DNA from: a virus
Virus record (IMG/VR): IMGVR_UViG_3300045988_113022
Strand: one strand, 5' to 3'
DNA: 32,829 bases
Every line of letters starts with the position of its first letter. Within the stretch, counting starts at the first letter, position 1. Below the pieces are notes generated by a model that did not search any database, was not told the DNA's origin, and worked only from the letters and a program-made list of their open reading frames with translations. This document shows, piece by piece, positions 1,326 to 32,829 of this stretch. The translations under genes were made by a program, and so were the position numbers.

Positions 1326-1354
1326 TTGACATTTTCAAGGCAAAATGGTATAAT
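1326..1354 (+). promoter_or_regulatory. SigA/sigma-70-type promoter (TTGACA-17-TATAAT, TG-extended -10)
   Basis: TTGACA 1326-1331, 17-nt spacer ending in TGG, TATAAT 1349-1354. Confidence 0.6.
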
Positions 1355-1401
1355 GGAAGTATGAAAAAAGACAAGAAGCGAGTGTCGAATAGGAGGAAAC
1401 G

Positions 1402-2028
1402 TTGAAAATCACTGAAATAAGCGTAAAGGAGCTAAAGCCTTACGCAAAAAACACGAAGAAGCACGACAAGGCGCAGATTGCAAACGTTGCAGAGAGTATC
1501 AAGCAGTATGGCTTTGTTCAGCCAATAGTCGTTGATAAGGACAACAACATTGTTATCGGACATTGCAGATATGAAGCGGCTAAAAAGCTGAAGATTGAAA
1601 CCGTTCCCTGCGTTTGCGTTGATGAGCTGACGGACGAACAAGTAAAGGCTCTGCGGATTGTTGATAACAAGAGCAATGAAAGCCCGTGGAATGTTGAAGC
1701 CCTGTTAGACGAGTTGGAAGATATTGATTTAAGCTGTTTTGATTTTGGCTTTGATGAAACCGAAAACGTTAAAGAAGAAGAAAGCAAAAACAAGCAGAAC
1801 AAAGAGTTAGAAAAAATGGAGCTGAAACAGTTTGAACACCACGATTACGTTGTTTTTGTTTTTGATAACACGCAAGATTGGCTTAATGTTGTAAACAAGT
1901 TCGGATTGAAAAGAATAGACGCAGGTTGGGAAAAGAGAAAAGTCGGACTTGGGAGGGTTGTAAAAGGTGAAAGACTTATTGAAGCGCTTGGATGTGAAAA
2001 TTTTGATACTGAGCCGTTCGAGGTTTAA
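1402..2028 (+). CDS. ParB/Srx N-terminal (ParB-like nuclease) domain protein
   Basis: TTG start 5 nt after AGGAGG. LKPYAKNTKKH...FVQPIVVD...IVIGHCRYEAAKKLKIETVPCV...ALRIVDNK matches the ParB-like domain usually fused to phage N6/N4 DNA methyltransferases. The C-terminal half is unassigned. Confidence 0.75.
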   Translation: MKITEISVKELKPYAKNTKKHDKAQIANVAESIKQYGFVQPIVVDKDNNIVIGHCRYEAAKKLKIETVPCVCVDELTDEQVKALRIVDNKSNESPWNVEALLDELEDIDLSCFDFGFDETENVKEEESKNKQNKELEKMELKQFEHHDYVVFVFDNTQDWLNVVNKFGLKRIDAGWEKRKVGLGRVVKGERLIEALGCENFDTEPFEV

Positions 2029-2716
2029 CAGTATTACTACAAACAAGCTGTTGCCAAATTTCGTTGAAATTCTTGTACCCGAAACGCAAAAAAGTGATTA
2101 TGAAAAAGCAGTCGAAAATCCAATTATTGCTATTCCTGATGAAATTAAAGGTTTGGGAGAAGTTCGAAATTGGGTTTTAGACCATTTCAAAGAACGTATC
2201 GTTATTATGATTGACGATGATATAAAATACGTTTATCGCTTGACAGGAGCTAAAAGTGAGCGTGTTGAAGATAAGGACGAAGTTCTTGACATCATTGTCA
2301 ACACAGCAGTAATGGCAGATGATGCAGGAGCTAAAGTTTTTGGATTTAATCAGAGTGATATTAGAAAGTTCAACGGTGCAGAGCCTTTTTCGCTGTGTGG
2401 TTGGCTCGGTTGTGTTATCGGCGTTATAGGTCGTGAACACAAATTTAGAAGTGACAAGTACAAAGTTGATATAGACTTTTGTATGAAATGCTTGCTGACC
2501 GACAGGATAATTTGGGAAGATAACCGTTACTTTTTTTCTCAAAGCCGAGATGATAATGTCGGAGGGAACAGCGAGTTCCGAACAGCTAAAGACTTCGAAA
2601 AGAGTTTAAACAGTTTGCAAAAAAAATGGGGTAAATACCTGATAGTCGGAATGCACAAAAATCAAATTCGTATAAGAACAAATGTTCAGAGAAAGCAGAG
2701 GTTAAAGTATGAGTGA
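1967..2716 (+). CDS. Putative GT-A-fold glycosyltransferase (DxD type), soluble
   Basis: GTG start 9-10 nt after GGGAGGG. The 62-nt overlap with the upstream gene leaves the start uncertain, and GTG 1994 is an alternative. N-terminal beta-strand KILILSRSR, then IVIMIDDDI about 85-95 aa in, as in GT-A enzymes. No TM segment. Family assignment is from pattern only. Confidence 0.5.
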   Translation: MKDLLKRLDVKILILSRSRFNSITTNKLLPNFVEILVPETQKSDYEKAVENPIIAIPDEIKGLGEVRNWVLDHFKERIVIMIDDDIKYVYRLTGAKSERVEDKDEVLDIIVNTAVMADDAGAKVFGFNQSDIRKFNGAEPFSLCGWLGCVIGVIGREHKFRSDKYKVDIDFCMKCLLTDRIIWEDNRYFFSQSRDDNVGGNSEFRTAKDFEKSLNSLQKKWGKYLIVGMHKNQIRIRTNVQRKQRLKYE

Positions 2717-3452
2717 TGTTTTAATAATCGGTTGTGGAGTTGTCGGAAACAATCTGTTAAAAGAACTTTCGGTATTAACTCCCGATGTTGTTGACAAATA
2801 CAAAAAGGAAAAAACAACAAAGAAAAAGGAAAAATACAAGTTCGGATTTGTTTGCGTAGACACGCCTTATGACAAGGAAAAAGAATTGTTTGACACAAGC
2901 GAAGTTGTTAATGCAATAAGAGAAAACGATTGCGAAATTTATGTTATAAAATCTACAGTTCCGATAGGCTTTGTTAATTCGCTCGGAAAAGAAAACATTG
3001 TTTTTTCGCCCGAGTATTACGGCGGTACACAGCATTGCAATAATTTTAAATTTGATTTTACAATTTTAGGCGGTTGTGAAAAGACTTGCAACAAGGTTAT
3101 ACAGCTTTTGCAAAAAGTGTATGACGCAAGACACAGATTTTTAAAAATGAAATCGTCGGAAGCCGAAATGGTTAAGCTGATGGAAAATTGTTTCCTTGCT
3201 ACAAAAGTTTCGTTCTGCAATTCTTTTTTTGAAATGTGCAAAGTATATAATTGTTCTTATGAAAGCGTTAGAGAGGGCTTTATCCTCGATGAGCGTTGCG
3301 GAGCTTCCCACTCGTTTGTTTATGAAGATAAACCGTACTGGGACAGTCACTGCTTGAACAAGGACACAGTTTGTGCCGCTATGCAAGGAAATGATTTCGT
3401 TAAAAATATTATCAAGTATAACGAAAGAGCAAAAAGTAGTAAAAAAATATAA
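2709..3452 (+). CDS. UDP-glucose/GDP-mannose dehydrogenase-family protein lacking the C-terminal nucleotide-sugar-binding domain
   Basis: Rossmann IIGCGVVGN, VCVDTP, IKSTVPIG, SPEY, central-domain block AEMVKLMENCFLATKVSFCNSFFEMC, and catalytic-Cys block WDSHCLNKD about 32 aa before the stop. Only 247 aa, where I recall roughly 390-440 aa for typical family members. Confidence 0.7.
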   Translation: MSDVLIIGCGVVGNNLLKELSVLTPDVVDKYKKEKTTKKKEKYKFGFVCVDTPYDKEKELFDTSEVVNAIRENDCEIYVIKSTVPIGFVNSLGKENIVFSPEYYGGTQHCNNFKFDFTILGGCEKTCNKVIQLLQKVYDARHRFLKMKSSEAEMVKLMENCFLATKVSFCNSFFEMCKVYNCSYESVREGFILDERCGASHSFVYEDKPYWDSHCLNKDTVCAAMQGNDFVKNIIKYNERAKSSKKI

Positions 3453-3460
3453 AAAACGTA

Positions 3461-3489
3461 TTGATTTTAAACCTTGTCTGTGATATAAT
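3461..3489 (+). promoter_or_regulatory. SigA-type promoter (TTGATT-17-TATAAT, TG-extended)
   Basis: TTGATT 3461-3466, 17-nt spacer ending in TGTGA, TATAAT 3484-3489. Confidence 0.6.
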
Positions 3490-3525
3490 TATTATAGAGC
3501 AGAAGCTCAGAAAGGAAGTAATTGT

Positions 3526-4071
3526 ATGAAATTATTTACACAGAGAGGTTATGATTTTTACGAGGTTGCAAGTGCTTTGCAGAAGTCGATAAGACGTGGA
3601 GATGTTAAACTTGCAGGGTATATGGCGTTAGAACTGTTCCCAAAGTATTCTGAATATTGTTGGAAAAGGCTGTTAACAATATCGGCAGAGGACTGTTACG
3701 GCGTGATAACAAAAGAGATAATGGCGTTGTATGACGCTTTTCACGTTATCAACAAAGGGAAAAAAGGTGAGGAACTGAAAGGCAGGGTTTTTATTTCAAA
3801 GGCTGTGATTCTTCTGTGTTCTGTTAAGCATAATCGTGACGCTGATTTACTCAGCAATTACGTTTATGATGCGTATTGCGGAGTATCTGATGAAATGATT
3901 GAAAAATTGTTTGACGAAGTAAGAAAAGAGCCTATTGACGTTCCCGAATATGTTTTTGACTGTCACACTTTGAAAGGGAAAAGAGCAGGGAAAACGAAAG
4001 AAGATTTTTTTAAGGAAGAAGAAGCGGCGTTAAAAAATAAACAAGCTTCTATTTTTGAATTTAAAGTATAG
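3526..4071 (+). CDS. Stand-alone MgsA/RarA C-terminal (MgsA_C-like) domain protein
   Basis: YDFYEVASALQKSIRRGDVKLAGYMALEL...LLTISAEDCYG...ISKAVILLCSVKHNRDA parallels the RarA block YDLISALHKSVRGS..DAALYW...LAIASEDVG...AIVYLACAPKSNA. There is no AAA+ ATPase module. Confidence 0.65.
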   Translation: MKLFTQRGYDFYEVASALQKSIRRGDVKLAGYMALELFPKYSEYCWKRLLTISAEDCYGVITKEIMALYDAFHVINKGKKGEELKGRVFISKAVILLCSVKHNRDADLLSNYVYDAYCGVSDEMIEKLFDEVRKEPIDVPEYVFDCHTLKGKRAGKTKEDFFKEEEAALKNKQASIFEFKV

Positions 4072-4075
4072 AGGT

Positions 4076-4216
4076 GATTAAACAATGCCAAACGTACAGA
4101 ATTTAAAGCCAGGCGCATACAAGCTGTCAAAGGAAGAAATGGCGAAAGGTGGAAGAAACTCGGCAGTGAAATGCTTGCCGCTATGTTGATGAAAAAAGCA
4201 ATGAATGGCGATGTCA
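4076..4216 (+). pseudogene. Degenerate duplicate of the terS 5' end (RBS + first ~26 codons, 91-nt internal deletion, frameshifted)
   Basis: 4076-4161 aligns with 5461-5546 and 4162-4216 with 5638-5693, with a few substitutions. The deletion joint lies at the 11-nt direct repeat GGAAGAAACTC that occurs twice in the intact gene. The reading frame breaks after about 30 codons. Confidence 0.8.
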
Positions 4217-4412
4217 GCGCTCCCGAAAGGCTTAGTGAAATCGTTCGGGCTTACCGAGATGTATCCGAAATGCCCCTCGCTTTTTAACAAAAGAGGTCAC
4301 GACCTGTTTTATGGTTTGCTTTATGAGTACGGCGTGAGAAAAGTAACAGAATATCGCTCTGATACCAGTTTTGAAAAAACTTATGGATTTTTCGTTTTTT
4401 AGCTTAAAATTG

Positions 4413-4441
4413 TTGACTTTTGTGTTAAATTGTGATATAAT
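4413..4441 (+). promoter_or_regulatory. SigA-type promoter (TTGACT-17-TATAAT, TG-extended)
   Basis: TTGACT 4413-4418, 17-nt spacer ending in TGTGA, TATAAT 4436-4441. Confidence 0.6.
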
Positions 4442-4494
4442 AATAATGTAGCAAAAAGCTACGAAAATCACATTGATTAAAGGAGAAAAAAGTT

Positions 4495-5277
4495 ATGCCG
4501 ATGATTTATGAACCCGCAGGAAAAGCTAGAGAGTACAGCCCTCTCGCACTCAACGTTTATTTAGGTTGTAGTCACAAATGCGAGTATTGTTACGCAAATG
4601 CGATGGCAAGAAGGAACGGAAACAGTTGTTATTTTGGAAACCCAAGCCCGAGAACAAAGGTTCTTGAAACACTTCCGAAAGAACTCAAAAAATGCAAAAG
4701 AGAGCAGGTGCTTCTTTCGTTTATCGGAGATGCTTATTGCGAAACAACAGACGATAATGCACTTACACGTTCTGTTCTTGAAATGCTTCTCGAAGCTAAA
4801 ATGCCTGTTGCAATCCTTACAAAAGGTGGAAAGCGTTGTCTTAAAGACCTTGACCTTTTTAAACGTTTCGGCGAGCATATTCAGATAGGCGCAACACTTA
4901 CGTTTGACAATGACGCTGATTCCCTCAAGTGGGAAAGTGGTGCGGTTCTTCCGTCAGAAAGACTTGAAACGCTTAAGATTTTACACGATAACGGAATTAG
5001 GACATTTGTAAGTTTTGAGCCTGTTATCGTTCCCGAACAGAGTTTACATCTTATGGAACAGAGCCTTGATTTTGTAGATGTTTATAAAGTCGGAAAGCTT
5101 AACAATTACAAAGGTCTTGACAAAGCTATAAACTGGACTGATTTTCTTGAGAAAACAGTAAAGCTTTTAAGAGAAAACAAAAAATCATTTTATATCAAAC
5201 ACGATTTAAGACTTGCCGCTCCGACCGTTAGACTTTACGGAAACGAAGTCCTTGCGGACGAACACAATGTCCAGTAA
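4495..5277 (+). CDS. Radical SAM protein (SplB/COG1533 'DNA repair photolyase'-like)
   Basis: LNVYLGCSHKCEYCYA contains the CxxxCxxC cluster in the context typical of SplB-like radical SAM enzymes. RBS AAAGGAG. It has its own promoter and terminator. Confidence 0.8.
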   Translation: MPMIYEPAGKAREYSPLALNVYLGCSHKCEYCYANAMARRNGNSCYFGNPSPRTKVLETLPKELKKCKREQVLLSFIGDAYCETTDDNALTRSVLEMLLEAKMPVAILTKGGKRCLKDLDLFKRFGEHIQIGATLTFDNDADSLKWESGAVLPSERLETLKILHDNGIRTFVSFEPVIVPEQSLHLMEQSLDFVDVYKVGKLNNYKGLDKAINWTDFLEKTVKLLRENKKSFYIKHDLRLAAPTVRLYGNEVLADEHNVQ

Positions 5278-5288
5278 ATTGTTTTATA

Positions 5289-5321
5289 GCGGTGGGCTTA
5301 TAGCCTGCCGCTTTTTATTTT
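5289..5321 (+). terminator. Rho-independent terminator
   Basis: 9-bp stem GCGGTGGGC/GCCTGCCGC (two G-U pairs), 5-nt loop, then TTTTTATTTT. Confidence 0.6.
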
Positions 5322-5337
5322 AGGAGGAAGCATTATA

Positions 5338-5466
5338 ATGACGATTGACGAAGCAAAGGAAATCATCAGAAAAACGAAAAGCCCGTATCTAAAAAGGGAT
5401 ATGGAAAAATTTATTAAACGCACTCAGAAAAAGCTAAAAGAAAAAGCTTTGCAGAAAGGAGATTAA
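5338..5466 (+). CDS. Small hypothetical protein (42 aa, basic)
   Basis: ATG 7 nt after TAGGAGGAAG. It is not in the ORF track because it is under 60 aa. No homology recognised. Confidence 0.35.
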   Translation: MTIDEAKEIIRKTKSPYLKRDMEKFIKRTQKKLKEKALQKGD

Positions 5467-5469
5467 ACA

Positions 5470-5814
5470 ATGCCAAACGCACAGAATTTAAAGCCGGGAG
5501 CATACAAGCTGTCAAAGGAAGAAATGGCGAAAGGTGGAAGAAACTCACATAAAAAGATGAGGGAGCGCAAGCTCCTTCGTGAATGCCTTTCCGAACTTTT
5601 GCAAATGGAATATGACACGAAACAGGGGAAGAAACTCGGCAGTGAAATGCTTGCCGCTATGCTGATGAAAAAAGCTATGAACGGCGATGTCAAGGCTTTT
5701 GAAGTCCTGCGTGACACAGCAGGAGAAAAGCCAGTTGATAAGGTTATGGTTGCAGATGTCGAAAAGACTATCATTGACGAAGTGGAGAAAATGGTAAAAG
5801 ATGAAACCGATTGA
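5470..5814 (+). CDS. terS: Putative terminase small subunit
   Basis: 114 aa, lying upstream of terL across the interposed methyltransferase gene. The basic N-terminus (NLKPGAYKLSKEEMAKGGRNSHKK) resembles small terminases of Firmicutes phages. The call rests on position and pattern only. Confidence 0.55.
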   Translation: MPNAQNLKPGAYKLSKEEMAKGGRNSHKKMRERKLLRECLSELLQMEYDTKQGKKLGSEMLAAMLMKKAMNGDVKAFEVLRDTAGEKPVDKVMVADVEKTIIDEVEKMVKDETD

Positions 5815-6769
5815 ATTATGGCACGGTGATTGCCTTGAATTGATGAAAGACATTCCTGACGGCTCTGTTGATTTGGTGCTGGCTGACCCGCCGTATGGAA
5901 CAACAGCTTGCAAATGGGATAGCGTTATTCCTTTTGAACCGATGTGGGAACAGTTGAAACGCATTGTAAAAAGAGGAGGTACAATTGTTCTCTTTGGTAG
6001 CGAGCCATTTTCAAGTCTTTTGAGGATAAGCAACATTGATTGGTATAAATACGATTGGGTTTGGGAAAAAGAGCAAAGCTCAAGCGGATTACAATCCAAA
6101 ATTGCACCAATGAAAAAGCACGAAAATATAAGTGTGTTTTTCCAAGCACCAACTGATGATACAACAAACGCATATCAATCCTTGAAAGAGTATTTTCAAT
6201 CCGAAAAAGAAAAAAGCGGATTAAATTCAAAGCAAATCAAAGAGCTGCTTGGAAACTATATGTCAAGTCATTATTTTACAAATGGATCGCAGTTTTGCAT
6301 ACCGTCTGAAGAAAACTATAAAAAATTGCAAAGCACGGGATTTTTTCAAGTGCCGTTTGAAGAAATAAGAAAGCAATATAAAGAAGATTGCCAAAACACA
6401 TACAATCCACAAATGACAGAGGGAAAGGCATACAAGGGGCATTTCGCGCCCGGAGCAGAGGTACACGGAAAGGCAACCCATTATGTGAAAGATAATAGCG
6501 GAACAAGATACCCTACAAGTATTTTGAAATTCAACAGAGCAAAAGGACTGCACCTGACACAAAAACCCGTTGCCTTGCTTGAATACCTTATCCGTACATA
6601 TACTAACAGCTGTGAAACCGTTCTTGACTTTACGATGGGTAGCGGAAGCACTGGCGTTGCTTGCGTAAACACTAACCACCGCTTTATCGGCATTGAACTT
6701 GATGAGGGATATTTCAACACCGCAAAAAAAAGAATTGAGGAAGCCTATGACGAGAGAACAAGCGGTTAA
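5801..6769 (+). CDS. DNA methyltransferase, beta-class N6-adenine/N4-cytosine family (DPPY)
   Basis: Motif IV VLADPPYG near the N-terminus and motif I FTMGSGSTGVAC near the C-terminus, with LTQKPVALLEYLI between them. Overlaps terS by 14 nt and terL by 23 nt. Confidence 0.85.
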   Translation: MKPIELWHGDCLELMKDIPDGSVDLVLADPPYGTTACKWDSVIPFEPMWEQLKRIVKRGGTIVLFGSEPFSSLLRISNIDWYKYDWVWEKEQSSSGLQSKIAPMKKHENISVFFQAPTDDTTNAYQSLKEYFQSEKEKSGLNSKQIKELLGNYMSSHYFTNGSQFCIPSEENYKKLQSTGFFQVPFEEIRKQYKEDCQNTYNPQMTEGKAYKGHFAPGAEVHGKATHYVKDNSGTRYPTSILKFNRAKGLHLTQKPVALLEYLIRTYTNSCETVLDFTMGSGSTGVACVNTNHRFIGIELDEGYFNTAKKRIEEAYDERTSG

Positions 6770-8015
6770 ATTTCTGCTTGAACAGCCTGCAAAATTTGGT
6801 GCAATGATAGGTTTCGACAAATTGACCGATTTGCACAACAAATGGATAATCGAGATGATAAGAGGTGACGGCGACAAGACACTGCAAGCTCACCGTAATT
6901 CGTACAAAACGACTTGTGCTTCCATCGCCCTTGCAATAATCATTATCTTGCTCCCGACACGCAGAACAATGTTTATGAGAAAAACGGACGCAGATATAAA
7001 GGAAATCGTCAAGCAAGTGCAGAAGATATTGCAGGACGAACATACGATATATTTTGTCCAGTCGATATACGGGGTTAATCTGAAATTGACGGTTGCAACG
7101 GCGACAGAAGTTTCAACAAATTTAAGCGTTGACGCTAAAGGTACGTCACAGCTTGTAGGCACTGGTTGCGGCGGCTCGATAACTGGTAAGCATTTCGATT
7201 TTATTTTCACGGACGATATTGTCAACGTACAAGACCGAGTATCAAAAGCCGAGCGTGACAGAACTAAGCTGATTTATCAAGAGTTGCAGAACATCAAAAA
7301 CAGGGGCGGCAGGATATTTAACACAGGTACGCCGTGGCACGCAGACGATTGCTTTACGATTATGCCGACACCCGAAGTTTATGACTGCTATTCGACAGGG
7401 CTTCTCTCCGCCGAGCAAATAGAAGAAAAAAAGCAGTCAATGACAGCTTCCCTTTTCGCCGCAAACTATGAGTTACGGCATATCGCCGCTGAGGACGTTA
7501 TTTTTACAAGCCCTCAGATAAACGCCGAGCCTTGCAACGTTGAACAGGGCGAAGGACATATTGATGCCGCTTACGGCGGTGAAGATTACACTGCGTTTTC
7601 TATCGTCCGAAAGAAAGACGGCAAGTATTACGTTTTAGGCAAGATGTGGCGAAAACACATTGATGATTGCCTTGATGAAATACAGTCGCTCCGACAGGCT
7701 TTCAACGCAGGCAAGATTTTTTGCGAAGACAACGGCGACAAAGGATATTTGGCAAAAGAACTCCGCAGGCGTGGCGAAAGAGCCGTCCTTTATCACGAAA
7801 ATATGAATAAATTTCTGAAAATCACGTCCTATCTGAAAGCAGAGTGGAACAACGTGATTTTTGTTGCAGGAACGGACAAAGAGTTTATCAATCAGATTTG
7901 CGACTATAACGAAAATGCGGAACACGATGATGCACCCGATAGTGTCGCAAGTCAGATAAGAAGGCTATGGAACAAGAAAGATAAGGTATCAACGTATCAA
8001 TCAATTTTGAGGTGA
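6747..8015 (+). CDS. terL: Terminase large subunit
   Basis: ATG 6747 follows GAGGAAG, so the track start at 6693 is less likely. ATPase blocks HFDFIFTDDIVN and TGTPWHADD. RNaseH-like nuclease blocks IDAAYGGEDYTAF, FCEDNGDKGY and HDDAPDS. Confidence 0.8.
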   Translation: MTREQAVKFLLEQPAKFGAMIGFDKLTDLHNKWIIEMIRGDGDKTLQAHRNSYKTTCASIALAIIIILLPTRRTMFMRKTDADIKEIVKQVQKILQDEHTIYFVQSIYGVNLKLTVATATEVSTNLSVDAKGTSQLVGTGCGGSITGKHFDFIFTDDIVNVQDRVSKAERDRTKLIYQELQNIKNRGGRIFNTGTPWHADDCFTIMPTPEVYDCYSTGLLSAEQIEEKKQSMTASLFAANYELRHIAAEDVIFTSPQINAEPCNVEQGEGHIDAAYGGEDYTAFSIVRKKDGKYYVLGKMWRKHIDDCLDEIQSLRQAFNAGKIFCEDNGDKGYLAKELRRRGERAVLYHENMNKFLKITSYLKAEWNNVIFVAGTDKEFINQICDYNENAEHDDAPDSVASQIRRLWNKKDKVSTYQSILR

Positions 8016-8018
8016 TTT

Positions 8019-9425
8019 ATGAAAACATATCAAGATTTACTTGCCCTCGGCGAAAATGAGGAAAGCCGTAAAACGTTTATAATTGACGCAATATACGAGC
8101 ATAAATGCTCAAGTGCGTTTGTTACGGCTGTAGACGCACACGGCTATTACAAAGGCTTGAACCCTACGATTATGAAGTACGAAAAGATTATCTATGATTT
8201 GCAGGGCATCGCTCACAATGACGAGTGGACAGCAAATCACAAGATAGCAAGCAATTTCTTTAACTTCGCCGTAACGCAGGAAAATCAGTATCTGCTCGGC
8301 AACGGTGCGGTTTTTGGCAACGACAGCACAAAAGAGAAACTTGGCAAGAATTTTGACGAAACGTTGCAGGAGTTAGGCAAATACGCACTTGTAAGCGGTG
8401 TATCTTTCGGGCTATGGAATTTAGACCATATCGAAGCGTTCGATTTAACCGAATTTGTGCCGTTGTATGATGAAGAAAACGGAGCATTAAGAGCAGGAGT
8501 GCGCTTTTGGCAGATAGACGGCGATAAGCCGCTAAGAGCAACACTGTACGAGGAAGACGGTTATACCGACTATATCCGCAGAAAGAACAGCAAGGTTGAA
8601 ACGCTTCACGAAAAGCGACCGTACAAGCTGAAAACAAGGACTTCTGCGGTTGACGGTGAGGTCATTTATGACGGTGAGAATTATCCCGACTTTCCGATAA
8701 TTCCGCTGTGGGCAAACGATAAAAAGCAGTCGGAGCTTGTAGGCAGGAAAGGTACGCTTGACGCATTTGACCTGCTGAATAGTAACCTTGTAAACAACCT
8801 TGACGAAGCAAATTTTATTTACTGGGTCATTTCGAATTGCGGCGGTATGGACGATGTTGACGATGCGAAATTTATCGAGCGGTTGAAAACAATGCACGTT
8901 GCCCACGTTGACGGGGATAACGTAAGTGGTGCAAATGTACAGGCAAACACAATTGACGTTCCGTATCAAGCAAGCGAAACGGCGATAAGTGCGATAAAAA
9001 GCAGATTGTACGAAGACTTTATGTGCTTAAACATTGCAGATATTTCCGCAGGAAACAAGACCGCAACAGAAATCCGTGCGGCGTATCAGCCATTAGACAG
9101 CAAATGCGATATGTACGAGTATTGCATTGACACGTTCATCCGCAAGCTGTTTACTTTAATCGGAATTGACGATACTGTATCGTTCAGACGGTCAAAAATT
9201 ATTAACCAATCGGAAGAAGTACAGACGATATTATCTGCGGCAGAGTACCTTGACGCTGATACAGTAACAGAGCAAATTTGCCAAATACTCGGTATGGGTG
9301 ATAAAGCGGAAGAAATTATCCGCAAAAAGCAGGACGAAAACACAGCCCGATATGCTGATATGCTCGCACAGCAGACAGCGAACGAGGGAAACAGCGGAGG
9401 AGCTGACGAACAGGGGGCTGAATAA
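8019..9425 (+). CDS. Portal protein
   Basis: 468 aa, immediately after terL and before a MuF-like gene, with an acidic C-terminus. Called from synteny and size. Confidence 0.7.
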   Translation: MKTYQDLLALGENEESRKTFIIDAIYEHKCSSAFVTAVDAHGYYKGLNPTIMKYEKIIYDLQGIAHNDEWTANHKIASNFFNFAVTQENQYLLGNGAVFGNDSTKEKLGKNFDETLQELGKYALVSGVSFGLWNLDHIEAFDLTEFVPLYDEENGALRAGVRFWQIDGDKPLRATLYEEDGYTDYIRRKNSKVETLHEKRPYKLKTRTSAVDGEVIYDGENYPDFPIIPLWANDKKQSELVGRKGTLDAFDLLNSNLVNNLDEANFIYWVISNCGGMDDVDDAKFIERLKTMHVAHVDGDNVSGANVQANTIDVPYQASETAISAIKSRLYEDFMCLNIADISAGNKTATEIRAAYQPLDSKCDMYEYCIDTFIRKLFTLIGIDDTVSFRRSKIINQSEEVQTILSAAEYLDADTVTEQICQILGMGDKAEEIIRKKQDENTARYADMLAQQTANEGNSGGADEQGAE

Positions 9426-10363
9426 TGGACGCTCTGGCAACCGCACACGCCGCAACGGATAAAGCCCTTGACGCAATGGAAAAATACGTTAGGTCAATTT
9501 ATCTGCGGTCGGTGCGTGAAATTTATAAGTCGTGGCAAAAGTTTTTTGAACAGGAACGCAAGGAAATTGACAAACTGCAAGAGGACTACGAAAAAGCAAA
9601 AAAGAGCGGAGATAAAACGCTGACAAAAAAAGCGGGAATTGCACTTGCGAGAGAAAAGAAAAAAGAAACTGTGCAAAATAAATGGTTTAGCGACACGGTA
9701 AAACAAACGGCTGAAAATCTGCTCCACGTCAACGAAACTGCGGTATCGTACTTGAACGGCAGACTTCCCGAAACGTATGTGACAAATTTTAATGCGGTCG
9801 GAGAATTATGCGAAAGCGCAATTACTGGATATTCTTACCATATCGTTGACGAAAATACCGTTCGTGAACTTGCAATGTCGGATACAAGTCTTTTGCCGTA
9901 TAAAGAAATTGACCCCGTGAAAGACATTGCGTGGAATGTGCGGCAGATGAAAAGTGAAGTGCTACAAGGGATTTTGCAAGGCGAAGATATGCAAGCAATA
10001 GCGAGCAGGCTGTCAAACGTAATCGGTATGAATGAGAACTCTGCTGTCAGAAACGCTCGGACAATGGTTACTTCTGCCGAAAACAAAGGAAGGCAAGACG
10101 GATTTTATCAAGCTGAAGAAGACGGCATTATCCTTGAAAAGTATTGGCTTTGCGTCCACGGCGAGAGGACGAGAGAAGCACACGCCGCCGCAGGAAATGA
10201 TTATTCAAAGTCAAAATCCATTCCGCAAAGTCAGCCGTTTATCGTAGGCGGTGAAAAGCTGATGTTTCCAGGCGACAGCAGTATGGGAGCGAGCGGTTGG
10301 AATTTGTACAATTGCCGTTGCTCCGTTGCGGCGGTAGTCAAAGGGTTTCGCAAAGTCGATTGA
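9425..10363 (+). CDS. Minor head protein (Mu F / SPP1 gp7-like)
   Basis: The C-terminal region ...GWNLYNCRCSV matches the Phage_Mu_F signature. It sits directly after the portal gene. Confidence 0.75.
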   Translation: MDALATAHAATDKALDAMEKYVRSIYLRSVREIYKSWQKFFEQERKEIDKLQEDYEKAKKSGDKTLTKKAGIALAREKKKETVQNKWFSDTVKQTAENLLHVNETAVSYLNGRLPETYVTNFNAVGELCESAITGYSYHIVDENTVRELAMSDTSLLPYKEIDPVKDIAWNVRQMKSEVLQGILQGEDMQAIASRLSNVIGMNENSAVRNARTMVTSAENKGRQDGFYQAEEDGIILEKYWLCVHGERTREAHAAAGNDYSKSKSIPQSQPFIVGGEKLMFPGDSSMGASGWNLYNCRCSVAAVVKGFRKVD

Positions 10364-10387
10364 TGAAAGCAAGGTGAAAGTTAAGCT

Positions 10388-10843
10388 ATGGGTGTTAAAG
10401 TAACAAGTAAAGATAACACGGACGAAGTGCTTGACCGTATGGAAAAGGCTTTTGAACGTGGCTTAAAGGCTTGCGGAATGACCGCAGAAGCATATGCAAA
10501 AGACACGCTTACCGACCAAGTATACAGTGTTGACGAAAGCAAGCTTGACTATGTGCTGACAGGCAGACTGCGAAACAGCATAACTTACGCTATCGGGGGC
10601 AAGTCTGCCGCCATAAGCAGTTACAAAGCTGATAAGCCAGGCTATAAAGGCGGCTCTTATTCGGGCAATGCACCCGAGGAAGATAAGCCATACGTTGCAG
10701 TAGGTACGAACGTAAAGTATGCTATCGGCATTGAAGAAGGAACGCATCGTAAAAAAGGAGCAGTGCATTTTCTGTTGAAAGCGGCTTCCGGACATCAAGA
10801 AGAGTACGAAAAGCTGATAAAAGAAAGCATGGAAAACGCTTGA
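10388..10843 (+). CDS. HK97 gp10-family-like virion protein
   Basis: GRLRNSITY...VAVGTNVKYAIGIEEGT resembles the gp10 family signature. Its position ahead of the scaffold gene is atypical. Confidence 0.5.
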   Translation: MGVKVTSKDNTDEVLDRMEKAFERGLKACGMTAEAYAKDTLTDQVYSVDESKLDYVLTGRLRNSITYAIGGKSAAISSYKADKPGYKGGSYSGNAPEEDKPYVAVGTNVKYAIGIEEGTHRKKGAVHFLLKAASGHQEEYEKLIKESMENA

Positions 10844-10868
10844 CAAAAAAGAAAAAATTGTATATAAT
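10840..10868 (+). promoter_or_regulatory. SigA-type promoter (TTGACA-17-TATAAT)
   Basis: TTGACA 10840-10845, 17-nt spacer, TATAAT 10863-10868. Confidence 0.5.
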
Positions 10869-10885
10869 GAGAATCGAGGTAAGAT

Positions 10886-11020
10886 ATGCAAGAAATACCG
10901 ATAAAATGTAACTGTGGAAAACTCGTTGCGAAATGGCGTGACGGTAAGTTATATGTGTGGTGTAAGTCTTGCAAACGGGAGTTTGAAATCCCGATACCAA
11001 AATTGAAAAGCAAAAGATGA
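10886..11020 (+). CDS. Small zinc-ribbon protein (44 aa, CxC...CxxC)
   Basis: MQEIPIKCNCGKLVAKWRDGKLYVWCKSCKREFEIPIPKLKSKR. RBS GAGGTAAG. Bracketed by its own promoter and terminator. Confidence 0.4.
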   Translation: MQEIPIKCNCGKLVAKWRDGKLYVWCKSCKREFEIPIPKLKSKR

Positions 11021-11026
11021 GCCATT

Positions 11027-11066
11027 GAGCCGTAGGAAATAACTCCTGCGGCTCTTTTTATCTTTT
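11027..11066 (+). terminator. Rho-independent terminator
   Basis: 11-bp stem GAGCCGTAGGA/TCCTGCGGCTC (one G-U pair), 6-nt loop, then TTTTTATCTTTT. Confidence 0.6.
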
Positions 11067-11126
11067 GTGAAAAAAATACATCAAATGGCAACGAAAAGCC
11101 ACCGAAGAAAAGGAGAATGTATAAGT

Positions 11127-11693
11127 ATGGCACTTTCAAGAAGAATGCTGAAGGCAATGGGCATTGAAGAGGAAAAAATAGAACAGATTATCGAAGCACA
11201 CGCCGAAACCGTTGACACGTTAAAGGAACAGCGTGATACCTTAAAGGCTGACGCAGATAAGCTGTCAGAAGTGCAGAAAGAACTTGACGAAGCGAAAAAG
11301 AGCCTTGAAGACGCAGGCAAGGACAGTTACAAAGTCAAGTATGAAGCTGTCAAAGAGGAATTTGAAAACTACAAGTCGGACGTTGAAAACAAGGAGAAGC
11401 ACACCGCAAAAGAAGCGGCTTACCGTGATATGTTAAAGGCGGCAGGAGTTTCCGAAAAGCGTATCGACAGCGTGTTAAAGGTTTCAGACGTTGACAGCGT
11501 GGAACTGGACGAAAACGGCAAAATCAAGGACAATGATAAGCTGACGGAAAGCATAAAAACAGAATGGGCGGACTTTATCACCGCCGAGGGTACAAAGGGA
11601 GCGAACGTTCCTACCCCCCCCTCGAAAAACGGAGAAAGCGACCCGAATAAAATGACTTTCGCCGAGTACAAAGAATGGCGAAAGAATAATTGA
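11127..11693 (+). CDS. Scaffolding protein (phage GP20-like)
   Basis: ATG 11127 follows AAAGGAG. MALSRRMLKAMGIEEEKIEQIIEAHAETV... followed by long charged coiled-coil sequence. Lies immediately upstream of the capsid gene. Confidence 0.65.
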   Translation: MALSRRMLKAMGIEEEKIEQIIEAHAETVDTLKEQRDTLKADADKLSEVQKELDEAKKSLEDAGKDSYKVKYEAVKEEFENYKSDVENKEKHTAKEAAYRDMLKAAGVSEKRIDSVLKVSDVDSVELDENGKIKDNDKLTESIKTEWADFITAEGTKGANVPTPPSKNGESDPNKMTFAEYKEWRKNN

Positions 11694-11713
11694 CGAAAGG
11701 AAAACTGAAAATT

Positions 11714-12811
11714 ATGGCAAACACAATTTTAACCCCTCAGGTAATTGCGAACGAAGCACTGATGGTGTTACAGGCTAATCTCGTAATGGCTGACCTTGTT
11801 CACAGAGACTACTCAAACGAGTTTGTGAAGGTCGGCGATACCATCACAATTCGTAAGCCTGCAAAATTTATTTCAAAAAACTTCACAGGCACGACCTCGA
11901 CACAGGATATAACAGAAGGCTCGACAACTGTAAAGCTTGACAGATACCGTGACATTACGGTTGATGTTACGAGCAAGGAAATGACACTTGATATAAAGGA
12001 CTTTTCCGAGCAGGTAATCGCTCCCGCAATGCAGGCTCACGCAGAAGCCGTTGACGCAGACCTCCTCGCAGTAGCGGCAAGCAAGGCAGGTAAGACTATT
12101 TCCGCAACCGCAAATCCCACAAACCTTAAGGATATTGCGGATATTGCAAAGACGCTTGACCTTGCAAAAGTACCCGTACAGAACAGAAGGCTCGTCCTGC
12201 ACCCTACACATAAGTACGCATACGCTCTGACCGATAATCTCTCAAAGGTAAGCTATGCCGGCGACAATCAGACGCTTCGTGACGCTCTGCTTGGACGTGT
12301 TTACACACTTGACACATATATGGACCAGAACGCACCTGATACTTACGCTGAAACAGCAGGCACAGCGACAGGCTACAAGGTATCTGCAACAGCAGGCGCA
12401 ACAACTGTTAAGCTGACAGGCGTTACAGCGGTAACAGGCACGATTAAGAAGGGTGATGCCTTTATCGTTGACGGATATATCTATCACTTTGAAGCTGATG
12501 CAACAGCGGCAAGCGGTGAGGTAGCAAGCGTTGCTATCGACCAGCCTGTACACGCAACACTGACCGAAGCAGTGGCAACACTCGTAAAGAAGCCTCATTC
12601 GGTAGCGTTCCATAGAAACGGTCTTGCACTCGTTACAAGAAACCTCGAACTGCCTATGGGTGCAGCTAATGCGGCAATTGCTTCCGCAGACGGTCTTGCA
12701 GTAAGAGTTGTTTACGGCTACGACATGGAGCATAAAAAGGATACAATTTCATTTGATATTCTTTACGGTATCAAAGACCTTGACGACAACATGATTGTTG
12801 CACTTGCGTAA
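11714..12811 (+). CDS. Major capsid protein (P22 coat-like N-terminal pattern)
   Basis: MANTILTPQVIANEALMVLQANLVMADLVHRDYSNEF..GDTITIRKP resembles the coat-protein family. It follows the scaffold gene. Confidence 0.75.
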   Translation: MANTILTPQVIANEALMVLQANLVMADLVHRDYSNEFVKVGDTITIRKPAKFISKNFTGTTSTQDITEGSTTVKLDRYRDITVDVTSKEMTLDIKDFSEQVIAPAMQAHAEAVDADLLAVAASKAGKTISATANPTNLKDIADIAKTLDLAKVPVQNRRLVLHPTHKYAYALTDNLSKVSYAGDNQTLRDALLGRVYTLDTYMDQNAPDTYAETAGTATGYKVSATAGATTVKLTGVTAVTGTIKKGDAFIVDGYIYHFEADATAASGEVASVAIDQPVHATLTEAVATLVKKPHSVAFHRNGLALVTRNLELPMGAANAAIASADGLAVRVVYGYDMEHKKDTISFDILYGIKDLDDNMIVALA

Positions 12812-12832
12812 ACGATGAAAGGACGGCGTGAT

Positions 12833-13258
12833 ATGCTGACGGAATTATGTAGAGAGTGTCGCAACTGGTTCACAACCGACAGCGACAAGCACAGCGGTGA
12901 CTTTACAATTTCAGACGGCGGTATCACGCCGTTTGATTTTGTACTGAGCGGGCAGTATTTCCGCATTATGGGAAGTCACTTCAATGACGGGGTTTATAAA
13001 AACGTTCCCGAAGAAGTCGCAAAACTGACGGCTGAAACGTTTACAGGGCAGATATGGGCAATGCGTGTTCCTCCTGCGTTTATTGACCTATCGGGGAAGA
13101 TTGAAGAGTACATCGCCAAAAACGAAAAAGAAATTTCTCCGTACACATCGGAGAGTTTCGGCGGTTATAGCTACACGAAAGCGGTAAACGATAAAAACGT
13201 TCCGCTGATGTGGCAAGAAGTTTTCAACAGCCAGTTGAAAGTTTGGAGGAAAATATGA
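12833..13258 (+). CDS. Hypothetical head-tail connector-region protein
   Basis: ATG 12833 has AAAGGA 9 nt upstream, whereas the track start at 12815 has no RBS. Called from position only. Confidence 0.4.
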   Translation: MLTELCRECRNWFTTDSDKHSGDFTISDGGITPFDFVLSGQYFRIMGSHFNDGVYKNVPEEVAKLTAETFTGQIWAMRVPPAFIDLSGKIEEYIAKNEKEISPYTSESFGGYSYTKAVNDKNVPLMWQEVFNSQLKVWRKI

Positions 13259-13608
13259 GTTTACTAAGCGAAGCAATGACCGACTGCGTGTTTTTGAACA
13301 AAAGCAAGGTTTCGGACGGTGAAGGCGGTTTCGTGGTAGAATGGACAGAAGGGGCTTCTTTCAAAGCGGCGATTGTTTTTGACAACTCGATGGAAGCCCG
13401 TACCGCCGAAAAGGCAGGGGTTACAAGTCTTTACACGGTTTCTGTTCCTATTTCGGTGGCGATTGAGTACCACGATGTTTTCAAACGCTTGTCGGACGGC
13501 AAGATTTTCCGTGCTACGTCTGACGGTGACGACAGCAAAACGCCCGCAAGGGCTACATTCCAAATCGCCCAGTTCACCGCCGAGGAGTTTGTGCCGACTA
13601 CAAAGTAG
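13255..13608 (+). CDS. Putative head closure / head-tail joining protein
   Basis: ATG 13255 follows GGAGGAAAAT and overlaps the upstream stop. Size and position fit a head-tail joining protein. Confidence 0.45.
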   Translation: MSLLSEAMTDCVFLNKSKVSDGEGGFVVEWTEGASFKAAIVFDNSMEARTAEKAGVTSLYTVSVPISVAIEYHDVFKRLSDGKIFRATSDGDDSKTPARATFQIAQFTAEEFVPTTK

Positions 13609-13818
13609 GCACTTTTCGGGCATTGTAGAGGGGAATGTAGTAGACTTTGTAGAGGTGCTAAAGTGGCTCTACGACTGGCTTTAAGGGTAGTTAAACTACA
13701 AACTCTACAAAATTTTTTATATTTATATAAAATAGGAGATTTTTTATAAAAGTAAATTTTATATTTATAGAAAACAATGTAGTTTTTGTAGTTTGTAGTA
13801 GAGAACGGGGGTTAGGAA
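13598..13818. repeat. Iteron / inverted-repeat / AT-rich noncoding element, copy 2 (paralog of 822..1118)
   Basis: The 23-nt TAGTTAAACTACAAACTCTACAA at 13688-13710 is identical to 924-946. The 16-nt ATTTATATAAAATAGG at 13721-13736 is identical to 957-972. AGACTTTGTAGAGG at 13642-13655. Palindrome CTACAAAGTAG at 13598-13608. Imperfect inverted arm TTTTTGTAGTTTGTAGTAGAG at 13783-13803. Confidence 0.8.
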
Positions 13819-32139: not shown

Positions 32140-32829
32140 CCGCATACAGGCAATCACCGCTCCCGAGCAGCTATTTGACACAGAGTTGCTTCTTGACGTG
32201 TTCGATGAGGAAAATCCGCCCGAAGAACAGGCAAGGCTTGTTTCCGTGATGAGTATAAAGGCAAGAATGCTTGGAGTATACAAAGAATTTGCGGCAACGA
32301 TAAAAGCGTTCCAGAAGGCGCAACAGAAGTTGGCTAACGAGTACCAGCGGATAAATGCAAAGCAAAACGGCGGTATGATTTTGGATTTTGCGAGTGACGG
32401 AAAACCGCTAGCAACGATTGACAATTTTGTGCAGGTAATCGAAAACGACAGCAAGTTTGATAATCTGCGGTTTAATCTGTTGACCGAAAGCCCTGAAAAA
32501 ATAATTGACGGCAAAGCAGAGCGGTGGACAGATGCGGACGATGCCGAATTAAGGCGGTACATAGAAAAGAAGTATAAATTCCATTCGGCGCAGAAAAGCG
32601 ATGATGCGTTGAGGATAGTCCTTAAAGGTCGGCAATATCACCCGATAAGGCAGTTGATTGACCATTTCGAGTGGGACGGTGTAAGCAGGATAAACACATT
32701 CCTCACGAAGTGGACGAAATGCGATGATAACGAGTATACACGGGAAGTATCACGCTTAATCTTTTCAGGCGGCATTCATAGACTATATAATCCAGGCTGT
32801 AAATTTGACGATATGGCGGTTTTTATTGG
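32126..32829 (+). CDS. VirE-family replication protein, N-terminal part (open at the window end, continues at nt 1)
   Basis: ATG after GAGGA. The frame is open to the last nucleotide, and the track omits it because there is no stop. HPIRQLIDHFEWDGVSRINTFL is the typical VirE N-terminal block. Joined with 1..821 it gives about 489 aa. Confidence 0.8.
   Translation, partial: MMDDNRIQAITAPEQLFDTELLLDVFDEENPPEEQARLVSVMSIKARMLGVYKEFAATIKAFQKAQQKLANEYQRINAKQNGGMILDFASDGKPLATIDNFVQVIENDSKFDNLRFNLLTESPEKIIDGKAERWTDADDAELRRYIEKKYKFHSAQKSDDALRIVLKGRQYHPIRQLIDHFEWDGVSRINTFLTKWTKCDDNEYTREVSRLIFSGGIHRLYNPGCKFDDMAVFI
32775..32829. repeat. Terminal direct repeat identical to 1..55
   Basis: Exact 55-nt identity with the window start. 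Confidence 0.9.

Follow-up and report, generated by a model that had tools for sequence, protein, structure and literature searches.

A stretch of viral DNA of 32,829 nucleotides (IMG/VR virus record IMGVR_UViG_3300045988_113022), referred to here as the window, contains between positions 1326 and 6769 six genes that a preliminary description, made from the sequence alone, had taken for one island for glycosylation or hypermodification of DNA or of the virion. This region was found to be a mosaic of three independent things: a four-gene module (1326-4071), a radical S-adenosylmethionine (SAM) gene and a DNA methylase gene. The module is a mobile, promoter-led unit with a conserved core of three genes, which encode a ParB-like protein, a glycosyltransferase (GT) and a standalone protein resembling the C-terminal domain of the RarA/MgsA ATPases (MgsA_C-like protein); the fourth gene encodes a short dehydrogenase of the UDP-glucose dehydrogenase (UGDH) family. 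We put the chances that the module carries out DNA glycosylation of some kind at about even. Unusual features are that a dioxygenase is lacking, that the MgsA_C partner is obligate and that the UGDH has lost the domain that binds uridine diphosphate (UDP).

The unit was recognised by its recurrence in other phages. Protein and profile searches were needed to find relatives, because a search at the DNA level among deposited phages gave only patchy matches of ~70%, to the methylase and radical SAM genes. By tblastn, the GT and the short dehydrogenase were found side by side in 56 of the deposited Microbacterium phages. In Microbacterium phage Paschalis, a ParB-like protein (gp84), a GT (gp85), a "UDP-glucose dehydrogenase" of 260 amino acids (aa; gp86) and an "AAA-ATPase" (gp87) follow each other in the same order as the four window proteins, to which they are 30, 34, 27 and 49% identical. 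These four genes, in unchanged order, were also found directly upstream of packaging genes in three metagenomic or prophage contexts (L003-L005), in the company of unrelated replication, portal and capsid modules.

A sample of 80 viral loci seeded on the GT and ~75 seeded on the MgsA_C-like protein was then scored using phmmer and hidden Markov models. The ParB gene lay directly upstream of the GT gene in every GT-seeded viral locus with enough upstream sequence (76/76), and the MgsA_C-like gene was present in 58 of the 62 with enough downstream sequence. When the search was seeded on the MgsA_C-like protein, all 59 viral loci with at least 2 kb of upstream sequence had the ParB and GT genes upstream. 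The three genes co-occurred in phages of 29-68% GC, and de novo clustering of the open reading frames (ORFs) from 36 dereplicated loci (GC 32-68%) produced no further family common across lineages. Together, the counts and the clustering identify ParB, GT and MgsA_C as the real unit, which the preliminary description had missed, and the dehydrogenase as an optional insert. The latter was found only in the sub-clade nearest the window and in the Microbacterium phages, between the GT and MgsA_C-like genes in 30 of 30 viral loci. The module usually sits immediately upstream of the terminase genes. No description of the trio was found in the literature searched: Jacobs-Sera et al. and the Merry/Sunny genome announcement merely list the module genes, and where ParB folds and phage GTs have been surveyed, ParB-like neighbours are mentioned but neither the MgsA_C partner nor this architecture is.

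Several variants of the locus were encountered. Streptococcus phage Javan291 (L002, 5357-7152) has a minimal version without MgsA_C or UGDH, in which a gene annotated 'DNA modification methylase', the product of which is ParB-like, and the gene of a TAGT-like GT are followed directly by a terS-like gene. A shortened UGDH of 202 aa was found in locus L252 and a shortened ParB of 128 aa in L247. In the sister strain L251 (Logan ERR13990688_12565, locus 1-604), the VapE-type helicase gene is replaced by a gene for a 303-aa PAPS_reduct-domain protein, immediately upstream of a small ORF and the module.

The radical SAM gene (~4222-5456) is a self-contained accessory inserted at the junction of the MgsA_C-like gene and terS. 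No homolog was found in any of 85 loci, of which 81 were GT-seeded relatives and four came from other phages or prophages. On its left side, the segment 4072-4161, which takes in the ribosome-binding site and ATG of terS (~25 codons), matches 5457-5546 at 96%, and a second block, 4151-4221, matches 5627-5697 at 93%, with an 81-nt gap between the segments. The 5' end of terS is thus duplicated on both sides of the cassette, which identifies an insertion scar with a pseudo-terS remnant. L006, which is the closest relative (GT 93% identical, nucleotides 85% identical over 1446-4061), has no radical SAM gene; its MgsA_C-like gene runs straight into terS, and its terS/terL slot contains a different ORF of 355 aa without family match. 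Among contigs with an identical MgsA_C protein, which represent strains of the same phage, three carried the radical SAM gene together with the methylase, one carried the methylase only and two had neither gene. The methylase (PF01555, 100.4 bits, cut-off 26.7), in which DPPY at 29-32 precedes FTMGSGSTG near 277-285, is a second accessory gene in the terS/terL slot and an ordinary orphan N6/N4 DNA methylase of the beta class.

The claim that the six genes form one island therefore failed, as radical SAM was found at 0/85 loci and left a terS scar, and the methylase is present or absent between strains. Co-occurrence in relatives, which had been proposed as a check, was found for ParB, GT, UGDH and MgsA_C, and not for the other two genes. 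That all six genes cooperate in one novel hypermodification is accordingly very improbable: their adjacency and common orientation would suit it, as would a radical SAM homolog in another phage that also follows a ParB and methylase-like pair, but the gene has its own promoter, terminator and flanking duplication scar, and strains with an identical MgsA_C protein are missing it, the methylase or both. The radical SAM gene was for the same reasons (0/85 loci, missing in sister strains) rejected as a fellow traveller of the module.

The radical SAM protein has the motif C25-x3-C29-x2-C32 and matches PF04055 (E 5.7e-14). It resembles the SplB/COG1533 'DNA repair photolyase'-type enzymes of the PA0069 and Rv2578c families, sharing with them the CxxxCxxC motif, the radical SAM core and the best NCBIfam matches; it differs in lying far under every equivalog cut-off (68.6, 55.6 and 62.7 bits against 360, 430 and 410 for PA0069, Rv2578c and mobile pair B) and in being an isolated accessory gene here. 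Its closest homolog in a deposited phage (64.5% identity) was found in Dulem virus 36 (PP511521.1, 4846-6786), where it is preceded by a ParB gene, with an NTP-binding domain 51% identical to that of the window, and by a 190-aa ORF with the SAM-methylase-like motifs LDCFHGKG ... DLDAFGSP. This arrangement beside a ParB/methylase-like pair is a single case. Weaker homologs in Bacteroidales phages adjoin SSB and ASCH genes. In Parabacteroides phage PDS1 (L091, 3980-5491), a homolog of 31% identity lies between genes for SSB, which binds single-stranded DNA, and an ASCH-domain protein, with a MazG pyrophosphohydrolase gene 1.5 kb downstream. ASCH was reportedly predicted to be a reader of modified bases (Iyer et al. 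2013). The radical SAM enzyme may act on DNA; nothing ties its gene to the glycosylation module.

The individual gene assignments of the preliminary description were borne out. All six ORFs lie on the + strand at the coordinates it gave, and the results for each protein are given below; the radical SAM gene with its own promoter and terminator, the DPPY methylase between terS and terL, and the near-consensus promoter behind the first iteron element were also found as described (Table 1).

The GT belongs, as judged by profile and model, to the known TAGT (TET-associated glycosyltransferase) family of phage DNA glycosyltransferases, and transfer to DNA is predicted. It matched Pfam PF20691 (TAGT) over profile positions 2-204 of 205 with 60.5 bits (cut-off 27.5, E 2.8e-16), and the same family was present in nearly all of the 120 GT homologs listed. 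It also matched phrog_842, which is annotated as beta-glucosyl-HMC-alpha-glucosyltransferase (HMC, hydroxymethylcytosine). Invariant residues include R67, the DxD-type motif D83-D84-D85 that had been noted before, D131, R133, K166, D168 and D170. An AlphaFold2 model built from an alignment of 35 sequences had a GT-A fold (pLDDT 90.2). When compared by Foldseek with predicted viral structures (BFVD), it matched phage TAGT-domain proteins with template-modelling (TM) scores of 0.75-0.82 and E 1e-13 to 5e-18, and a T4-like beta-glucosyl-HMC-alpha-glucosyltransferase was within this range. A close characterised likeness is the T2/T6-type enzyme of this name (PF20691, phrog_842), with the same Pfam family, GT-A fold and DxD motif; the version from Klebsiella phage PKO111 aligned at TM 0.78 (E 6e-14). 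In contrast to the GT, with which it shares only ~15% sequence identity, the T-even enzyme has no ParB or MgsA_C partner and adds a second glucose to glucosyl-5-hydroxymethylcytosine derived from a dCMP-hydroxymethylase pathway, which is absent in this phage. The T6-type second glucosyltransferase was placed in PF20691 also in a 2026 paper (PMC13390438).

Among solved structures the best Foldseek matches of the GT model were the wall-teichoic-acid enzymes TarS and TarP (TM ~0.5, E ~1e-5), together with other polysaccharide GT-A enzymes. Pyle et al. (bioRxiv 10.1101/2023.12.21.572611) reported this pattern too, for phage DNA GT-A enzymes that were active in experiments. The matches could nevertheless mean that the GT and dehydrogenase glycosylate a target other than DNA, such as a virion protein, a host protein or, as TarP does, an envelope polymer, and that ParB and MgsA_C have an unrelated function close to the packaging genes. 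Virion glycosylation occurs in actinobacteriophages. Such a target would be in keeping with the additional glycosyltransferases of Paschalis and of Arthrobacter phage KellEzio, and with the failure to find a hydroxymethyl-base pathway. We regard it as unlikely, since the GT is far nearer to phage TAGT and DNA GTs (TM ~0.8) than to TarS/TarP, is always paired with ParB through overlapping ORFs in hosts of very different envelopes, and accompanies unrelated capsid, portal and terminase types, so that no fixed virion substrate moves along with it. Since the Microbacterium cluster EC phages are lytic (PMC7302621), a role in lysogenic conversion is disfavoured.

The host range bears on the same point. 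A scan of one genome per species gave 283 relatives of the MgsA_C-like gene, and the best 80 of these came from Bacillota, Bacteroidota, Verrucomicrobiota (the majority), Planctomycetota, Chlorobiaceae, Acholeplasmataceae and a CPR bacterium; overall, the hosts include Actinomycetota as well as Bacillota, Bacteroidota, Verrucomicrobiota and Planctomycetota. This breadth points to a universal target and not to one envelope polymer or a Gram-positive wall polymer, and TarP-like envelope glycosylation is weakened by it. A Ructibacterium metagenome-assembled genome (MAG; Bacillota) with 80% identity to the MgsA_C-like protein suggests the host group of the window phage.

The ParB-like protein is of the kind found fused to DNA methyltransferases, as had been described: it matched ParB_N (E 1.2e-12), phrog_620 (2e-45) and the N-terminus of the ParB-methylase family phrog_498 (1e-38). 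A profile of 35 ParB-like sequences aligned with solved ParB, Spo0J and Noc structures over the NTP-binding domain alone (residues ~4-115), followed by an acidic linker and a separately conserved C-terminal block (E145, Y149, G182, G184, R185). The P-motif G53..R56 is conserved, and there is no helix-turn-helix (HTH) DNA-binding domain. ParB-like activators of phage thymine dioxygenases, consisting of an NTP-binding domain, a linker and a C-terminal domain without HTH, have been published (O'Toole et al., PNAS 2026, PMC13229309); they are required on double-stranded DNA, and the neighbourhoods of these 5mYOX enzymes are enriched in GTs (31%), ParBs (27%) and terminases (19%). The predicted architecture of the protein studied here is that of the 5mYOX activator ParB.

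The module and the 5mYOX/GT neighbourhoods (PMC13229309; bioRxiv 10.1101/2023.12.21.572611) thus have in common a ParB without HTH, a TAGT/JGT-like GT-A enzyme, a position adjacent to terminase genes and nearby sugar-tailoring enzymes. They differ in three respects: no 5mYOX, ThyA-like enzyme or C5-methylase was found in the complete genome here, the MgsA_C-domain protein is obligate here and is not mentioned in the literature searched on those systems, and the UGDH-like enzyme here has no UDP-binding domain. No cognate Fe(II)/2-oxoglutarate thymine dioxygenase lies beside the ParB gene, the neighbours of which are the GT, UGDH and MgsA_C-like genes.

The MgsA_C-like protein (181 aa, phrog_16866) gave profile matches to 3bge, 2qw6, 2r9g and 3pvs at E 4e-5 to 1e-3, in agreement with its earlier description as an orphan MgsA/RarA C-terminal domain. 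Of RarA/MgsA, it covers only the MgsA_C domain together with the final 19 lid-domain residues, and the AAA+ ATPase module is absent. Its model is all-alpha and of moderate confidence (pLDDT 69.7; residues 1-100 mostly 72-89), and the top Foldseek matches were all MgsA C-terminal fragments. The RarA/MgsA/WRNIP1 ATPases have a homologous MgsA_C domain, including the signature SA..KS.RG.D ... AED; unlike them, the protein here is standalone and belongs to a family of ~185 aa. The family has 33 invariant columns among 30 diverse sequences and more than 1,000 homologs, mostly adjoining ParB and GT genes in phages. Comparison of the best 120 database matches (73-87% identity, against 52-62% for the GT) indicates that it is the slowest-evolving core member.

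More distantly related domains of this type were also seen outside the trio, in two other phages. In Stenotrophomonas phage DLP3 (MT110073.1, 8833-9903), the 356-aa protein DLP3_078 contains an MgsA_C-like domain (hhalign probability 97.6) with the signature EV.SA.QKS.RRGD ... AEDC, as in the MgsA_C-like proteins, and its gene adjoins that for an NAD-dependent sugar epimerase. DLP3 DNA carries arabinosylated 5-hydroxycytosine (5hoC; PMC13326640). The gene numbers of that report disagree with MT110073.1. In KellEzio (KU647626.1), an MgsA_C-domain protein (gp78; PF12002, E 6e-9), a GT-B glycosyltransferase (gp90) and a ParB-like protein (gp92) are encoded within 8 kb, the first ~5 kb from the other two, and a dCMP deaminase is encoded too. 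These genes may be a loosely organised analogue of the trio with a different GT fold.

The short dehydrogenase (~245 aa) was confirmed as a UGDH-family protein that keeps the Rossmann and catalytic blocks and lacks the C-terminal domain. Its profile aligned to residues ~60-290 of solved UGDHs (E 1e-21), and it matched PF00984 (E 5.5e-14) and positions 64-295 of the 413 of TIGR03026 (88 bits, below the cut-off of 189.8). The Rossmann glycines G8, G10 and G13 and the catalytic K156/N160 and C215/D219 were invariant in all 11-14 homologs, and with all catalytic residues retained the enzyme is predicted to be active. The UDP-binding domain PF03720 is missing, the protein ending at the equivalent of residue ~290 of the 390-490-residue enzymes. 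Compared with bacterial UDP-glucose 6-dehydrogenases (PDB 7kws, 3phl, 1dli), the Rossmann GxGxxG motif, the central domain and the catalytic Lys/Asn and Cys/Asp are common to both, whereas the phage protein has a shortened N-terminal domain and is confined to this module. The loss of the UDP-binding domain would be compatible with oxidation of a sugar already bound to DNA.

The lack of the domain that normally holds UDP could instead be explained if the module were a counter-defence or regulatory device acting on nucleotides or small molecules, for example by consuming or altering nucleotide-sugars or signalling nucleotides, with no polymer target. Small-molecule kinases and NTP-binding switches that differ in specificity are found among the ParB/Srx folds (PMC12704722), the ParB-like protein has a weak SerK match, and the module resembles many anti-defence genes in being mobile and accessory. 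This explanation is nevertheless quite improbable, as no precedent was found in the literature searched, the characterised members of the GT family act on DNA-linked acceptors and the ParB architecture matches that of a DNA-dependent activator.

The first 55 bases of the window recur exactly at its end (positions 1-55 = 32775-32829) and a primase/VapE helicase ORF spans the end-to-start junction, so that the window holds all of a circular (or circularly assembled) phage genome, 32,774 bp long, and gene absences could be tested genome-wide. Scans with Pfam and PHROG covered the non-structural ORFs of at least ~95 aa, with lax E-values included; smaller and most structural ORFs were outside them. 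No TET/JBP (5mYOX) enzyme, ThyA-like enzyme, C5-methylase, DpdA/Que protein or PurZ was found in these scans, in line with what the preliminary description had recognised. PF12851 matched none of the scanned ORFs at E up to 0.01-5, and no hidden dioxygenase or ThyA-like gene was found among the ORFs of no assigned family by Pfam at E up to 5. Nor was a precursor-base enzyme found among the top 25 of 45 Pfam families in 149 neighbouring ORFs of nine diverse loci (a family occurring once could have escaped this list), a dioxygenase or ThyA-like family in ten ORFs of locus L039 scanned individually by Pfam, or a source of hydroxymethyl-pyrimidines in the flanks of L003-L005 or in annotated Paschalis. 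With no enzyme forming a hydroxymethyl-pyrimidine found in the genome, the acceptor is not a classical 5-hydroxymethylcytosine (5hmC) or 5-hydroxymethyluracil (5hmU) made by a recognisable enzyme. The missing hydroxymethyl-pyrimidine route is the interesting part of the system.

A classical glycosylation of hydroxymethyl-pyrimidines could still operate if the hydroxylase, a divergent 5mYOX or a member of another class, were hidden among the ORFs of no known family. Thousands of 5mYOX-like contigs have no TET/JBP Pfam annotation (O'Toole et al., PMC13229309), and within the replication module several ORFs (150-217 aa) could be assigned to no family. None of the ORFs without assignment, however, is as large as a phage 5mYOX, which has at least 280 aa as judged from residue C280 of 5mYOX176 (PMC13229309), and none co-occurs with the module across lineages. 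The MgsA_C-like protein was considered as a replacement oxygenase, being in a slot often taken by a 5mYOX and having many invariant Asp, Glu and His residues, and was rejected because it is an all-alpha homolog of the RarA C-terminus without a jelly-roll and with only one invariant His. The radical SAM gene is excluded from this role by its absence in relatives. A cryptic hydroxylase is thus improbable.

In the mechanism we propose, the phage DNA would be glycosylated between its replication and its packaging. Access of the GT to duplex DNA would be provided by the ParB-like protein, much as in the ParB-dependent thymine dioxygenases, and the GT would move a hexose from a host nucleotide-sugar onto the DNA. 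In the UGDH sub-clade, the dehydrogenase would oxidise C6 of the hexose to give a hexuronic acid, either before transfer or on the DNA-bound sugar, and the MgsA_C-like protein would be an obligatory partner on the DNA side. DNA is suggested as the target because the GT passes the TAGT threshold and its model resembles phage DNA GTs more than TarS/TarP, because the ParB architecture matches that of the 5mYOX activator, because MgsA_C is a domain of a DNA-replication/repair ATPase, and because the MgsA_C-like domain of DLP3 adjoins a sugar epimerase in a phage with arabinosylated DNA. In the specific form of this proposal, ParB, the TAGT GT and MgsA_C would glycosylate DNA without a hydroxymethyl-pyrimidine precursor, and the UGDH without UDP-binding domain would, in one sub-clade, oxidise the attached sugar to yield DNA decorated with uronic acid. 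We hold this form only tentatively; it would require as acceptor a canonical base, the backbone, a DNA end or a group made by some new chemistry involving the MgsA_C-like protein.

With regard to the preliminary description, a sugar, possibly a uronic acid, on DNA is still the best reading for the four genes, with the radical SAM gene and the methylase now excluded. The statement that the island fits no known pathway was too strong, since the TAGT GT, the ParB activator (PMC13229309) and hexuronic acid on 5hmC (bioRxiv 10.1101/2023.12.21.572611) were already known; what stands is the absence of the hydroxymethyl-pyrimidine route.

A number of observations weigh against glycosylation of DNA by the module. 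Neither the genome nor Paschalis nor the sampled neighbourhoods yielded an enzyme that would generate the acceptor (5mYOX, ThyA-like), and, to our knowledge, all characterised TAGT enzymes require a hydroxyl carried by a modified base or a sugar. No column of the GT alignment separates clades with and without UGDH, and thus there is no sign of a donor switch to uronic acid. ParB and GT genes were found within 8 kb in only 31 of 62 genome or MAG loci, the other 31 being mostly verrucomicrobial prophages, so the link between MgsA_C and GT is not absolute, and many of the MgsA_C loci without ParB/GT have ligase, Amidoligase_2, GATase or AAA+ genes downstream. In strain L250 (ENA ERZ28661064 scaffold_794, 1189-2191), which encodes an identical MgsA_C-like protein, the ParB ORF is shortened to 104 aa and the GT is split into 68 + 169 aa; the broken ORFs of L250, L252 and L247 are either decaying modules or assembly errors. 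Pyle et al. (bioRxiv 10.1101/2023.12.21.572611) considered DNA modification less likely for GT contigs without 5mYOX/ThyS.

In locus L039 (13141-18476) and in verrucomicrobial loci, the MgsA_C-like gene is followed by genes for an ATP-dependent DNA ligase, Amidoligase_2, a class-II GATase and one or two AAA+ proteins (RuvB_N/clamp-loader-like); L039, a viral locus, has the full trio ahead of this same set. The set may represent a larger or alternative modification island, or a split RarA. L199 (Prosthecobacter MAG, 5926-13755), the one locus without ParB/GT that was scanned with Pfam, has an integrase gene immediately upstream of the MgsA_C-like gene, which is flanked by a HipA toxin gene as well, with no ParB/GT nearby; a few other such loci had an integrase homolog nearby.

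The features of the region are collected in Table 1. An inverted repeat (1300-1316/1325-1341) overlaps the -35 element of the module promoter. The ORFs of the ParB-like protein and GT overlap by 62 nt and those of the GT and UGDH by 8 nt, which suggests coupled expression. Between the helicase gene and the module promoter, at 853-1103, at least six copies of iteron-like ACTTTGTAGAG-like 11-14-mers in both orientations surround an AT-rich stretch; this repeat region, which is iteron element 1 of the preliminary description, looks like an origin. Elsewhere in the genome, a 146-aa protein encoded at 30161-30601 matches PF18909, the N-terminal domain of dATP/dGTP diphosphohydrolase (MazZ-like, E 7e-28); neither PurZ nor any other Z-base gene was found in the genome. 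The same 32,829-bp contig is present in NCBI (GCA_036828165.1, DAISSU010000031.1), binned into a MAG.

Table 1. Positions of the module, of the accessory genes and of the adjoining packaging genes in the window
Feature	Position	Strand	Remarks
Promoter, sigma-70-type, TTGACA-17-TATAAT with upstream TG	1326-1354	+	12/12 consensus; leads module
ParB-like gene	1402-2028	+	core member
TAGT-family GT-A glycosyltransferase (GT) gene	1967-2716	+	core member
Short UGDH-family dehydrogenase gene	2709-3452	+	optional, sub-clade only
Promoter-like site with TG ahead of MgsA_C-like gene	3461-3489	+	10/12, consensus match alone
Standalone MgsA_C-like gene	3526-4071	+	core member
Remnant of terS 5' end, left scar of radical SAM insertion	4072-4221	+	
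Promoter of radical SAM cassette with TG	4413-4441	+	11/12
SplB-like radical SAM gene	4495-5277	+	accessory, outside module
Intrinsic terminator of radical SAM cassette	5288-5312	+	11-bp stem, then T run
Small terminase-like gene (terS)	5470-5814	+	directly after MgsA_C-like gene in relatives
N6/N4 DNA methyltransferase gene	5801-6769	+	terS/terL slot, strain-variable accessory
terL	6693-8015		

The glycosylation of phage DNA has so far been understood as the tailoring of 5hmC, 5hmU or 5hoC, and about two thirds of the phage GT contigs obtained by mining, which have no precursor enzymes, were set aside (Pyle et al., bioRxiv 10.1101/2023.12.21.572611). At least a part of this "orphan" set forms a coherent, mobile module in which the GT has two obligate partners and which is distributed from Actinomycetota to Verrucomicrobiota. 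With all four genes present in 56 cultured phages of Microbacterium cluster EC, the question is open to testing. If the module does modify DNA, it would represent a route to glycosylated DNA with no precursor base or with a cryptic one, and would give the conserved MgsA_C domain its first function. There would then be consequences for the evasion of restriction and CRISPR, for the sequencing and assembly of such phages and for enzymatic labelling of DNA.

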